Shown here: in pieces, positions 44,360-48,034 of the stretch | How positions within the stretch are numbered: the first letter of the stretch is position 1 | Layout: the number at the start of each line of letters is the position of its first letter | Assembly (NCBI GenBank): GCA_041574955.1 | Contig: JBFGNS010000006.1 | Span: 1 to 55,255, forward strand | Source: Thermoanaerobaculia bacterium | Lineage (GTDB): Bacteria > Acidobacteriota > Thermoanaerobaculia > Multivoradales > JAHEKO01 | DNA: 55,255 nucleotides | Reading direction: 5' to 3' | The notes under the pieces: model-generated | What the model was told of the DNA's origin: nothing | What the model saw: the letters and a program-made list of their open reading frames with translations, nothing else | Databases searched by the model: none | Program-made: the position numbers and the translations under genes

Positions 44360-46621
44360 TCAGCGCGGCGACAGGTCGGCTAGCAGCAGGGCCGAAAACT
44401 CGGCGTCGCCGGCGTAGGCCGCGAACTCCGGCGCTTGCCGGAACTCCTCGCGCGGATAGCCGGCGCGGATGGCCTGTTCGACCAGCCGCAGCAGGCCCGG
44501 CTTGTCGCCGGCCACGGCGTGGATCTGCGCCGCGTTGTAGAGCAGCTCCGGGTCCTCGGGGCTCTCCGCGACCCGCGCGTCGATGGCCGCCGTGGCCTCG
44601 CGGTGGCGCCCCACCTTGGCGACGCTCAGCAGCCTCAGCGAGACCAACCCCGGCTGCGCCCCGGCCGCCGCAATGCGGCGATCGCAGCTGTCGATCGCCG
44701 CCAGGTACCAGCGGCGCGACTCGGCCTGGTCGCCCAGGCTGGCGTACGCGTCACCCAGGTTGTGCTGGGTCATCGGGTGCTCCGGGTCCATCCGGTAGGC
44801 GTTGAGATAGGCGTCGACCGCTTCGGCCGGCCGGTCGAGATAGAAGTAGACGGTGCCCAGGTTGTTGGCCGCGGGCCGGTAGTCCGGCTGCAGCTCGAGA
44901 ACGCGCTGGAACAGCGGTGCCGCCTCCAGGTAGCGGCCGCTGCGCATGTAGACGATCGCCAGGTTGTTGAGCGCCCCGGCGTGATCCGGAGCGAAGCGAA
45001 TCACCTCGCGGTACTCGAGCGCCGCCTCCTCGAGCCGGCCCAGCCTCGCCAGGGCGGTGGCCAGGGCGTGCCGGGTGTTGACCTGGTCGGCGCCGAGCTC
45101 GACCGCGCGTTCCAGCTCGGCGAGCCCTTCCTCGTGCTGCCCGCGGGCGATCAGCGATTCGCCCAGCAGGATCGGGGCGCGGCTGTCCGCCGGCTCCAAG
45201 CGGTGCGCTTGGCGCGCGGCGTCGACGGCGGTTTCGAAATCGCCGGCGGCACGGGCCAGCTCGGCACGCGCCAGCCACGGGCCGACCACCGGCTCGTCTC
45301 CGCCCTCGGCCTGCTCGACCAGTGCCAGCACCTCCTGCTCCCGGCCGTCCTCGGGGTCGATGCGCTGGCGGGCGGCGAGCAGAGCGGCCAGCTCACCGGC
45401 GAGAAACGCGTTGTTCGGCTCGAGCTCGAGCGCGCGCCGCCAGGTCTGCTCGGCGAGCCGCAGGTTGGTGCGCGTCAACCCGCGTCGCCAGTAGCGCTCG
45501 CCCTGGGTGAACAGCAGACGGGCGTCGGTGTTGGCGATCCGCCCGGCGGCGCGGCGGGCCTCGTTCTCCGCGGAGGCGGACTCGGTCTCGCCGGTGCGCT
45601 CGGGCCACTGGCGCACCACCAGCACCGCCGCCGCGGTCAGCCCGAGGGCGATGACGGCGGCCACCGCCGGCCGGCGCCAGCGCCGCCGTGGCGGCCGACC
45701 GGTGACCACGGAGGTCAGCGGCACGGTGCCTGTGCCCTCGATCTCGCGCCGCAGGTGCATCAGCTCGTTGCGCACGTCCTGCGCCGACTGGTACCGCTGC
45801 TCGGGGCTCTTCTCCAGGCAGTGGCTGATGACCCGCGCCAGGTGGTTCGGCAGGTCGGCCCGCCGGGTGTCGATTTCGCGTGGCGCGTCCTTGAGGATCG
45901 ACGACATCACGGCGAGCGAGCTCGGCCCGCCGAACGGCCGCTGGCCGGTGGCCATCTCGTACAGGATGGTGCCGAGCGAGAAGATGTCCGAGCGGGGATC
46001 GGGCTCGCGTCCCTCGAGCTGCTCGGGCGACATGTACGGCACGGTGCCGACGATCTGGCCGACGGTGGTCAGCGGCTCGGTGAGCAGCTCGGTGGCGTCG
46101 TCGCTGCTGACCGCGGCCTGCAGCTTGGCGAGCCCGAAGTCGAGCACCTTGACGGGGCCGCTCGCCGGCACCACCACGTTGCCCGGCTTGAGGTCGCGGT
46201 GCACGATGCCTTTGGCGTGGGCCGCCGCCAGCGCCTCGGCGAGCGGGATTCCGATGCCGAAGATCCGGCGCAGCGGCATGCCGTCGCGCGGGATGAGCTT
46301 CGACAGCGGTTCTCCATCCACCAGCTCCATGGTCAGAAAGTGGAAGCCGTCGACGTGCTCGACCGAGTGGATCGTCACGATGTTGGGGTGACTGAGGGCT
46401 GCCAGGGAACGTGCCTCGCGCTCGAAGCGGCCCAGCCGCTCGGGGTCGCGGGCGAACTCGGCGGGGAGCACCTTGATCGCGACCTGCCGCCCCAGCCGCG
46501 TGTCCTCGGCCCGGTAGACGACGCCCATGCCGCCGGCGCCGATCTGCTCGAGGACGCGGTAAGCGCCCAGACGCTGGCCGACCAGCTGGGGGTCCTGGGT
46601 GGTGGATCCTTCAGAGGCCAT
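44360..46621 (-). CDS. Hanks-type Ser/Thr protein kinase with TM helix and TPR domain
   Basis: Start ATG 46621. GAGGMG, VAIK, HRDLKPGN, DFG, GTVPYMSPE; TM; TPR repeats (ALNNLA, AANNLG). Confidence 0.95.
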   Translation of the reverse strand: MASEGSTTQDPQLVGQRLGAYRVLEQIGAGGMGVVYRAEDTRLGRQVAIKVLPAEFARDPERLGRFEREARSLAALSHPNIVTIHSVEHVDGFHFLTMELVDGEPLSKLIPRDGMPLRRIFGIGIPLAEALAAAHAKGIVHRDLKPGNVVVPASGPVKVLDFGLAKLQAAVSSDDATELLTEPLTTVGQIVGTVPYMSPEQLEGREPDPRSDIFSLGTILYEMATGQRPFGGPSSLAVMSSILKDAPREIDTRRADLPNHLARVISHCLEKSPEQRYQSAQDVRNELMHLRREIEGTGTVPLTSVVTGRPPRRRWRRPAVAAVIALGLTAAAVLVVRQWPERTGETESASAENEARRAAGRIANTDARLLFTQGERYWRRGLTRTNLRLAEQTWRRALELEPNNAFLAGELAALLAARQRIDPEDGREQEVLALVEQAEGGDEPVVGPWLARAELARAAGDFETAVDAARQAHRLEPADSRAPILLGESLIARGQHEEGLAELERAVELGADQVNTRHALATALARLGRLEEAALEYREVIRFAPDHAGALNNLAIVYMRSGRYLEAAPLFQRVLELQPDYRPAANNLGTVYFYLDRPAEAVDAYLNAYRMDPEHPMTQHNLGDAYASLGDQAESRRWYLAAIDSCDRRIAAAGAQPGLVSLRLLSVAKVGRHREATAAIDARVAESPEDPELLYNAAQIHAVAGDKPGLLRLVEQAIRAGYPREEFRQAPEFAAYAGDAEFSALLLADLSPR

Positions 46622-46873
46622 CAACGACCTCGAGCCCGGCGGTGGCGACTGCCGGGGGTGAAGCTGGAGCCTGGCAGAGGTCTGTCGACCCTGGCCGCTG
46701 TCTGTCGGGCTCGACCCGTTTGCATGCCGACCGGAGCTCCCAGCGGCGGACGCTATCAAAACGAGGCGCGGGCCGCACCGCTCCCGTGCTACGCTCGCCG
46801 TTCGTACGCCCGCAGTGCGATCCGGAGGCTGCCCGCCCCCGGCGAGCCGCAGGGATAGCACAAGGAGACAGCC

Positions 46874-47248
46874 ATCACAGCCAAGATCTTCGTCGGCAAT
46901 CTGAGCTACGACGTCACCCGCGACCGCCTGTCCCAGCTGATGGGCGAGGTGGGTAGCGTTCGCGACATCTACCTTCCCGTCGATCGTGCCACCGGCCGCC
47001 CGCGCGGCTTCGCCTTTGTCGAGTTCTCGCAGTCGGAAGAGGCCGAGCAGGCCATCGAGAAGTTCAACGACTTCGAGCTCGAAGGCCGCCGGCTGCGCGT
47101 CGACGTGGCGGAGGAGCGCCGCCGGCCGCGCCCCGCGGCGCCCTCGATGGACTTCGATGCGCCGGCGGGAGGGCCACGGTTCACCGCCAAGCCGTCTCGC
47201 CCGAAGGGCAGCCGCCGGGGCCTGCGCGGCAAGAAGCGCAGCCTGTAA
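46874..47248 (+). CDS. RRM (RNP-1) RNA-binding protein with probable ATC start codon
   Basis: RNP2 KIFVGNL and RNP1 RGFAFVEF; AAGGAG 6 nt before ATC 46874; in-frame TAG at 46856. Confidence 0.9.
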   Translation: MTAKIFVGNLSYDVTRDRLSQLMGEVGSVRDIYLPVDRATGRPRGFAFVEFSQSEEAEQAIEKFNDFELEGRRLRVDVAEERRRPRPAAPSMDFDAPAGGPRFTAKPSRPKGSRRGLRGKKRSL

Positions 47249-47315
47249 CCGCGCCTCCGCCCACGGATCCAGCGGGCGCCGGTCCCGATCGTTTAGCCGG
47301 CGAGGGTCGTCTCGG

Positions 47316-47332
47316 GTGACAGGTTTTGTCAC
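47316..47332. promoter_or_regulatory. Palindrome GTGACA-N5-TGTCAC, candidate enhancer (UAS) for a sigma-54 activator
   Basis: Dyad about 75-90 nt upstream of the -24 element. Confidence 0.5.
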
Positions 47333-47405
47333 TCCAACGGCCGATAGAGGCCTTTCGATCAGTCCTAAACCCCTGATCGAAAAGGGTTTGGGCGCATTGC
47401 GCCAG

Positions 47406-47421
47406 TGGCACCCGTCTTGCT
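47406..47421 (+). promoter_or_regulatory. Sigma-54 (-24/-12) promoter
   Basis: TGGCAC-ccgtc-TTGCT matches TGGCAC-N5-TTGCW, 28 nt before ATG 47450. Confidence 0.8.
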
Positions 47422-47449
47422 CGCATGGAGTTTGCGTTTGGAGGCGACC

Positions 47450-48034
47450 ATGCGAAACCGAATCGACATTCGATACCGCCGCGAGCGGTCGCGCAGGCTG
47501 TCCGTGGCGGCCGAGGCTCTCGGGCGCGGCGCGCCGGCGCGACAGGCCCTGCTGGCGACCGCCTTGCTGACGGCCCTGGCGCTGGCCTTGGCGGCTCCGG
47601 CAGGCGCCGCTTCCGGCGTCACCACCGCCAACTCGGTGGCCTGGGCGGTCAGCCAGGTCAACGCCTCGACGACCAGTCAGGTCTGGCAGGGCGTGCCCGA
47701 GATGACCGTCAACGTGACCCTCAAGAAGACCGCCGACCTGATCATCGACTACTGTTCCGAGGCCATCACCGATCCCGGCGAGATCCAGCTGGTGAGGGTC
47801 GCGGTCGGTGCCGGCAGCTTCGCCTCACCGGACGGTGCCGGCGGCGGCGGCGTGATCTACGCCTACGACAACTCGAGCTACCTCAACGACGTCCAGTGCA
47901 TGACCTGGGTCTATCAGGGCCTCGCCCCGGGCACTCACCCGGTGTCGGTCGAGTGGCGGTCGTGGAACGGCGCCCGGGTCTACACCGCCTGGCGGTCGAT
48001 GAAAGTGCTGTTCGACAGCAACGCCAAGCCGTAG
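47450..48034 (+). CDS. Secreted hypothetical protein (beta-rich, two Cys)
   Basis: GGAGG RBS before ATG 47450; long basic n-region then hydrophobic h-region ending AGA-A. Confidence 0.7.
   Translation: MRNRIDIRYRRERSRRLSVAAEALGRGAPARQALLATALLTALALALAAPAGAASGVTTANSVAWAVSQVNASTTSQVWQGVPEMTVNVTLKKTADLIIDYCSEAITDPGEIQLVRVAVGAGSFASPDGAGGGGVIYAYDNSSYLNDVQCMTWVYQGLAPGTHPVSVEWRSWNGARVYTAWRSMKVLFDSNAKP

Follow-up and report, generated by a model that had tools for sequence, protein, structure and literature searches.

An RRM RNA-binding protein gene with a predicted ATC start in an Acidobacteriota bacterium, and an ATT or ATC codon at the same position in most of its subfamily

We analyzed a 55,255-nt stretch of DNA (the window; contig C6, JBFGNS010000006.1, of the assembly GCA_041574955.1, here genome G000) for a gene encoding a small protein with a single RNA recognition motif (RRM). 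Alignment of its relatives places the start of translation at an ATC codon at position 46874. The reading that we favor as the most likely, while holding it well short of certain, is that this 124-amino-acid (aa) protein starts at ATC, that it belongs to an Acidobacteriota subfamily in which an old ATT or ATC start has been selectively kept, and that its output is held down by initiation factor 3 (IF3).

The start of the RRM gene

The initial annotation had proposed an RRM gene initiating at ATC behind a good Shine-Dalgarno (SD) sequence, and the start site in the window agreed with it at every position: AAGGAG and a 6-nt spacer (ACAGCC) precede the ATC, an in-frame TAG blocks upstream starts, and no ATG, GTG or TTG occurs before 46940, where a start would delete RNP2 (Table 1). 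The ATC is followed by ACA GCC AAG ATC TTC GTC GGC AAT CTG, and translation of 46859-47248 opens HKETAITAKIFVGNL and closes KGSRRGLRGKKRSL before the stop. Counted from the ATC, codon -6 is the upstream stop, and codon +22, the ATG at 46940, is the first canonical codon downstream. A listing of open reading frames (ORFs) restricted to ATG, GTG and TTG starts returned 46940..47248 (102 aa), and a listing with the table-11 start set returned 46874..47248 (124 aa) with the ATC start.

The gene call for this locus in the protein collection (P0002, 102 aa, 82% of the query) begins at the ATG, and we considered the possibility that this call is right, in which case the protein would have 102 residues without RNP2 and the similarity upstream would be a relic. 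The call is the gene caller's own output and the sole frame started by ATG, GTG or TTG, but nothing in the family is better conserved than the 22 codons that it leaves out, with the KVFVGNL columns at 80-99% in 48 sequences, and these codons are needed for a full match to RRM_1. The region before 46940 has no SD-like run, and the Met encoded there is not conserved, the family consensus residue being Phe (48 sequences). The first downstream canonical codon of the ATT/ATC loci described below is scattered over +4 to +138, indicating that there is no conserved internal start. We regard initiation at 46940 as highly improbable.

A sequencing or assembly error, or a recent mutation of an ATG that inactivated the gene and left a pseudogene, might be invoked from the rarity of such start codons, and from nothing further. 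The ATC was kept in metagenomic contigs of three runs from two studies. The contig of run X1, which may be the source sample, covered 46700-47233 with 0 differences; that of run X5, from another study, covered the full 601 nt with 1 difference; and that of run X6, a strain variant, covered 46700-46953 (254 nt) with 6 differences. None of the differences listed for the three contigs falls at 46874-46876. One of the X6 differences is T>C at 46856, which turns the TAG into CAG, so the upstream stop varies within the species while the ATC is kept. Together with an intact frame, a conserved domain and tail, and ATT or ATC at 33 other loci from other genomes, these contigs leave the error or pseudogene explanation a negligible probability.

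Conservation of the start codon in the tail-bearing subfamily

We surveyed start codons in RRM loci drawn from four sources: 40 relatives (match in 38 of 41 genomes, G000 included); named genome records, which gave 6 loci; 301 genomes sampled evenly from the phylum, of which 48 had a match at E <= 1e-20; and 47 stretches fetched for the matches of that sample. Each locus was anchored on RNP2 and the codons before RNP2 were read. Three loci were dropped before the count: L001 duplicates L003, L021 lies on a contig that starts within the gene, and the regular expression did not match RNP2 in L064. The analysis covered 82 loci. We grouped the loci by their C-terminal tail, independent of the start codon; the pattern K-P-K-G-S-R-R-G/N-x-R-x-K/R-K-R-S/G-L/F (KPKGSRRGLRGKKRSL) defines a subfamily of 48 tail-bearing loci, the other 34 being counted as tail-less. 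For 18 of these 34 the fetched stretch ended before the stop, with the tail out of view, and their N-termini are of another type. One locus counted as tail-less, L015 (G022:C31), has an ATG start (MSCK...) and a tail that can be read only after a change of frame, apparently owing to a frameshift or an assembly indel close to the 3' end.

Among the 48 tail-bearing loci, the window included, the codon homologous to the ATC is ATT in 22, ATC in 12, ATG in 11, TTG in 2 and GTG in 1, with no other codon. An ATT or ATC is thus present in 34/48 and a canonical codon in 14/48, and the orthologue alignment upholds the ATC start that the initial annotation had proposed. The tail-less loci have ATG in 26, GTG in 3, TTG in 2, ATT in 1 (L051), ATC in 1 (L031) and another codon in 1. 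Because canonical starts occupy the same aligned position in the 14 orthologues and in nearly all paralogues, we take the homologous codon to be the initiation codon. Two tail-bearing loci with an ATH codon (ATA, ATC or ATT), L017 and L026, carry it one codon further upstream. The single-contig genomes G286, G147 and G111, which probably derive from isolates, each have an ATT/ATC-type copy. An upstream in-frame stop, with no ATG, GTG or TTG between it and the ATH codon, was found in 17 of the 34 ATT/ATC loci; 3 reached no stop in the fetched stretch, and the rest have upstream canonical codons at scattered, non-homologous distances.

The 34 loci include L033 (genome G334, labelled Binatia and flagged as unpublished), without which the count is 33/47. 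The ATT-type copy thus occurs in one metagenome-assembled genome (MAG) labelled as lying outside Acidobacteriota, and we claim no range beyond Acidobacteriota because only 2/101 sampled genomes of its phylum had a match at E <= 1e-20.

The choice among Ile codons at the start differs from that within the same genes. The start-position codons of the 34 loci are ATT in 22, ATC in 12 and ATA in 0, and the internal Ile codons of these genes are ATT in 18, ATC in 71 and ATA in 6 (Fisher p = 7.5e-6, a value overstated by the relatedness of the sequences). Close sisters, such as L040 and L042, differ by ATT and ATC at the start; the third base drifts between T and C and avoids G and A. Since most relatives across the phylum keep ATT or ATC, the weak start appears to be maintained by selection.

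A quick maximum-likelihood tree of the 48 subfamily proteins and 5 paralogues placed all 34 ATH rows, along with 9 canonical rows, in one clade of 43 rows with a Shimodaira-Hasegawa-like approximate likelihood ratio (SH-aLRT) support of 95; 5 ATG rows fell outside this clade. At least 6 changes of start-codon state are needed on the tree, compared to 12.3 in shuffles. The weak start codon is probably old in the 43-row clade and seems to have been swapped for a canonical codon several times. Pairing with the anti-SD sequence was found at 34/34 ATT/ATC loci (-4.6 to -12.4 kcal/mol, mean -8.5), with a median of 5 nt between the last paired SD base and the ATT or ATC. The 14 canonical-start members had a mean of -6.5 kcal/mol, and two of them had almost no SD (Mann-Whitney p = 0.012, inflated by relatedness).

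Paired RRM matches, about 100-300 nt apart on the same strand, were observed at G001:C10:2501-3235, G002:C201:2274-3002, G006:C123:5317-6100 and G015:C1:1287151-1287968. The downstream copy in G001, G002 and G006 is an ATC-start, tail-bearing gene (L009, L010 and L013).

We further analyzed the annotations of the family in protein databases, using the 119 best matches besides P0002. An Ile at -4 or -5 was found in 62/119, behind mutually dissimilar N-terminal extensions of 2-77 residues (median 22); 48 begin with M, V or L 3-5 residues before RNP2, 5 are truncated and 4 are of other kinds. The tail was detected by pattern in 118/119. Members named by NCBI comprise the extended calls P0049 and P0056 and the canonical call P0029. 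The family therefore appears to be large, with Ile at the start codon in about half of its members and with gene callers wrong in both directions.

The 124-aa protein matches RRM_1 with 81.4 bits over residues 5-75, the model beginning 4 codons after the ATC, and its RNP2 and RNP1 columns are conserved in 80-99% of 48 relatives. Members of the family (118-157 aa) consist of one RRM, a variable Pro/Arg/Ala-rich linker and a conserved basic tail. The basic C-terminal tail, which the initial annotation had called distinctive, proved to be a signature of the subfamily, and a six-frame scan with a regular expression located it only in this gene of the 4.49-Mb genome; three other matches to the expression in G000 were rejected as frames rich in Arg, in a genome with 72.5% GC. 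Neither Pfam nor NCBIfam has a model that matched the tail. The best named model for the whole protein was NCBIfam NF058537 (Rbp_regulator), with 84.5 bits against a cut-off of 100, and two relatives scored 79.6 and 85.7.

Sequence matches in the PDB included cS22 (5x8p_v, E 5.9e-24), PSRP2 (5mmj_v), Helicobacter 12RNP2 (2ki2_A, E 2.6e-12) and eukaryotic RRMs, and such matches to many solved RRMs make an RRM fold very likely. The ESM Atlas returned generic RRM clusters only. It is reasonable to read the protein as binding single-stranded RNA in general, with its basic tail as an auxiliary part. Some JGI relatives are named 'cold-inducible RNA-binding protein'. The cold-inducible Gly-rich Rbp family of cyanobacteria is defined by a Gly-rich C-terminal region and cold induction, and its genes have ATG starts and are cold-induced; unlike these proteins, the C-terminal part of the protein studied here has no Gly-rich run.

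Table 1. Coordinates of features at the RRM gene, numbered from the first letter of the window
Feature	Position	Strand	Remarks
In-frame TAG upstream of start	46856..46858	+	closes the frame; CAG in one strain-variant contig (run X6)
Shine-Dalgarno AAGGAG	46862..46867	+	6 nt before start; anti-SD duplex -8.0 kcal/mol
GCC, R-Y-C context directly before start	46871..46873	+	conserved in ATT/ATC loci
ATC, predicted initiation codon	46874..46876	+	homologous codon ATT/ATC in 34/48 subfamily loci
RRM protein coding sequence	46874..47248	+	124 aa and TAA stop (47246-47248)
RRM_1 domain (PF00076)	46886..47098	+	82.4 bits, cut-off 20.7; model positions 1-70 of 70
RNP2 IFVGNL	46886-46903	+	
First in-frame ATG	46940..46942	+	start of public gene call (102 aa), RNP2 left out
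RNP1 RGFAFVEF	47003-47026	+	
Basic C-terminal tail RPKGSRRGLRGKKRSL	47198..47245	+	most columns conserved in 60-99% of 48 sequences
Terminator-like hairpin and T-run	47306..47330	+	hairpin 47306-47320; 58 nt past stop codon; pattern match only

Initiation context and control of output

We read the infC starts of 29 related genomes in the frame that leads into the IF3_N domain. The codon behind the SD was ATC in 11/29, ATT in 9/29 and ATA in 4/29 (24/29 in all); 2/29 showed a tie between two ATH codons and 3/29 had no candidate. In G000 infC was not found with PF00707 or PF05198, and as the assembly is 89% complete this does not imply its absence. The infC genes of G001 and G002 (L115 and L118), which are the closest genomes and belong to the genus of the window, showed no SD-backed ATG, GTG, TTG or ATH candidate upstream of IF3_N.

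The AUU or AUC codon of infC is the target of IF3 autoregulation (PMC5499595, PMC2830850), and IF3 represses sigR of Streptomyces through a GTC start (PMC5472188). Other non-canonical starts outside infC are the AUU of E. coli pcnB and the ATC of Deinococcus dnaA (PMC2830850). Since infC in 24/29 related genomes shares the design of an SD followed by an ATH codon, discrimination by IF3 against the weak start is the likeliest mechanism. The ATC at 46874 would be decoded by initiator tRNA, with the AAGGAG 6 nt upstream setting its place, and this combination of a strong SD and an AUH codon is also that of the infC genes in related genomes. By discriminating against non-canonical start codons, IF3 would then hold synthesis of the RRM protein down, so that its output would be low, would be inversely coupled to free IF3, and would follow the IF3:ribosome ratio and with it the state of the translation apparatus. 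We infer the IF3 sensitivity and any physiological coupling by analogy with infC. In vitro, mRNAs with an AUU start compete poorly at low temperature and under ppGpp (PMC5499595); if these data carry over, the RRM protein would be disfavored in the cold and in the stringent response. The suggestion of the initial annotation that synthesis is tied to cold or stress found no support; the competition data would argue for less protein in the cold and not for more.

The weak codon might, as a second explanation, only fix a low constant output of a protein that is harmful in excess, with no coupling to IF3 levels, much as was proposed for E. coli pcnB. The weaker SDs of the ATG, TTG and GTG members could be a second route to the same output, and the changes of start-codon state on the tree, at least 6 in number, are consistent with interchangeable states. 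This explanation also draws on a second likely ATC start in G000. A genome-wide search there for an SD followed by ATH gave 172 raw candidates, of which 12 were scanned with Pfam, and one of the 12 was convincing: a CDP-alcohol phosphatidyltransferase gene (L126, G000:C29:4104-4712, minus strand). Its ATC stands behind GGAGG and ACCACC, the Pfam domain runs from residue 3, and no canonical codon follows before +15. The relatives of L126 have ATG or GTG at the equivalent position in at least 12 of the 20 loci in which the anchor was found, so that L126 looks like a lineage-specific ATC start, and such unconserved starts can arise without a special role. A low constant output is reachable in many ways, yet the position in the RRM gene stays ATT or ATC across a clade sampled from several families and classes, and ATT is enriched over ATC relative to the genes' own codon usage. 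Moreover, any AUH start is expected to be IF3-sensitive, as established for infC (PMC5499595), which makes full independence from IF3 unlikely. We consider a constant low output without IF3 coupling an unlikely explanation, albeit one that deserves serious weight.

The bases directly before the start follow a purine-pyrimidine-C (R-Y-C) context. In the 34 ATT/ATC loci, -1 is C in 33/34, -2 is C or T in 32/34 and -3 is A or G in 30/34; the triplet before ATY (ATC or ATT) is GTC, ACC, GCC or ATC, and positions -4 to -6 vary freely. A C at -1 was found in 5/14 canonical-start subfamily members, in about 7/31 canonical-start paralogues and in 12/24 infC ATH starts. The context has a counterpart at the protein level, the codon before an Ile at -4 being V, A, I or T in 53/57 database proteins. 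For 32 start regions aligned without gaps (-20 to +48), alifold predicted a consensus structure with 0 pairs. These counts suggest that the R-Y-C context is tied to the ATY start of this gene and not to ATH starts generally; it may adjust how AUY is decoded in the P site, or a protein may bind there, possibly the RRM protein itself.

Our tentative and rather unlikely extension of this observation is that R-Y-C-AUY is a functional element, serving either the efficient use of AUY or as an autoregulatory operator of the RRM protein on top of IF3 control. A stricter form makes R-Y-C-AU-Y a gene-specific operator, a candidate binding site for the RRM protein itself, with AUY kept as part of the site. 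The near-fixed bases at -1 to -3 next to free ones at -4 to -6, the counterpart in the 53/57 database relatives, the lack of the context in the 14 canonical-start members and its much weaker form at infC of the same genomes are what this form would lead one to expect, and no RNA hairpin accounts for the context. The binding is purely putative, however, and a k-mer count of the leaders found no second copy of the motif. The context could instead determine AUY decoding on the ribosome, and C at -1 is also present in half of the infC sites and at the other ATC candidate of G000 (ACC ATC). We judge the stricter form to be quite unlikely. If an operator were confirmed, the gene would represent a phylum-wide post-transcriptional circuit in Acidobacteriota that ties the RRM protein to the condition of the initiation machinery.

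Several points weigh against the reading that we favor, an old ATT/ATC start held down by IF3. Initiation at the ATC rests on sequence comparison, and three ATT/ATC loci (L027, L067 and L073) might in fact start at an ATG that lies 2-4 codons upstream. The 14/48 subfamily members without the weak codon indicate that it is dispensable, and their weaker SDs are no less compatible with a plain adjustment of expression level than with regulation. The tree was built from a short protein, with 19/50 of its inner branches unsupported. The proposed IF3 sensitivity is drawn from infC of relatives, infC itself not having been found in the 89%-complete assembly, and the IF3 model does not account for a C at -1 that is near-invariant here (33/34) and present in 12/24 infC starts.

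Gene setting and comparison with known systems

The source genome assembly (4.49 Mb, 290 contigs, 89% complete, 72.5% G+C) comes from a marine member of the Acidobacteriota that is uncultured. Among named relatives of the RRM protein, the nearest are from MAGs labelled Acidobacteriota and Thermoanaerobaculia, and the DNA of the window occurs in marine and sediment metagenome runs, with no RNA run listed among them. On one side of the RRM gene a Ser/Thr kinase gene is transcribed divergently (Pfam Pkinase domain, minus-strand frame), and a plus-strand frame with a start near 47450 lies downstream. A 990-aa minus-strand 'ORF' over the RRM gene, running upstream of the kinase gene, was rejected as a stop-free frame of the kind common in high-GC DNA. 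At 21 loci, 61 flanking frames were scanned with Pfam and no recurring neighbor gene was detected; the RRM gene appears to stand alone, without conserved neighbors.

An inverted repeat at 47351-47385 lies past the RRM gene, ahead of the next plus-strand frame. Its 12-nt arm at 47351-47362 pairs with 47373-47385, with one bulged A and a loop of about 10 nt, and GTTTGGG follows. The sole other RRM gene of G000 (L002, C1:80133-80390, minus strand) has an ATG start behind AAGGAG and ends in a Gly/Arg stretch and a final RW, and the paralogues L038, L080 and L082 have a similar end.

An extended -10 element at 46787 and a leader of ~70 nt had also been proposed by the initial annotation. The string itself, TGCTACGCT, is present at 46787-46795; a consensus promoter scan of 46500-47500 found 0 sigma-70-like sites, and the 106-nt stretch 46795-46900 folded no better than shuffles (z = -0.01). 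An Rfam search of the leader gave nothing above threshold (a chance match to snaR-A scored 23.8 against 98 bits), and a k-mer count of the subfamily leaders returned GC-rich repeats only. The proposed -10 element is a bare sequence pattern, and neither it nor the leader gained support.

A literature search found no report of an ATT or ATC start for an RRM protein or in Acidobacteria, most subscription journals lying outside the search. The elements that appear to be new are the gene family itself, a conservation that reaches over much of the phylum, and the gene-specific R-Y-C context. Conserved AUH starts outside infC are few and most of those reported are confined to a genus or family, which makes the RRM gene a good candidate for being another widely conserved gene with IF3 sensitivity, next to infC. 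It would also give a way into the study of post-transcriptional control in Acidobacteriota, where experimental genetics is very scarce. For annotation, gene callers limited to ATG, GTG and TTG systematically misread the family, the call for the window being 22 residues short and 62/119 relatives carrying spurious extensions; domain statistics and structure predictions for these proteins thus begin from wrong sequences.

The protein resembles other small RRM proteins. Like the cyanobacterial Rbp proteins, the Bacteroides Rbp regulators, Helicobacter 12RNP2 and the chloroplast cS22 and PSRP2, it has one RRM_1 of ~80 residues with RNP2 and RNP1. It differs from the bacterial single-RRM Rbp proteins in having a linker and basic tail instead of a Gly-rich tail, and in falling below the Rbp_regulator cut-off. 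The tail-less RRM paralogues of the same phylum start with ATG, GTG or TTG in 31/34 loci.

The closest parallel at the level of initiation is infC, which like the RRM gene combines a strong SD with an AUH start and is conserved over large evolutionary distances. The RRM product, in contrast to IF3, is not the discriminating factor, and any control by IF3 would act in trans and not by autoregulation. The two also differ in that ATA is the start in 4/24 infC genes and in 0/34 ATT/ATC loci of the RRM subfamily, and in that C at -1 is near-invariant at these loci and present in 12/24 infC starts. The pcnB, sigR and dnaA genes are, as described in the reports cited above, likewise genes other than infC whose output is limited, or is controlled by IF3, through a non-canonical start. 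In those reports such cases are described within a genus or family, whereas the RRM codon, known from sequence, is kept across a clade sampled from many families of the phylum.

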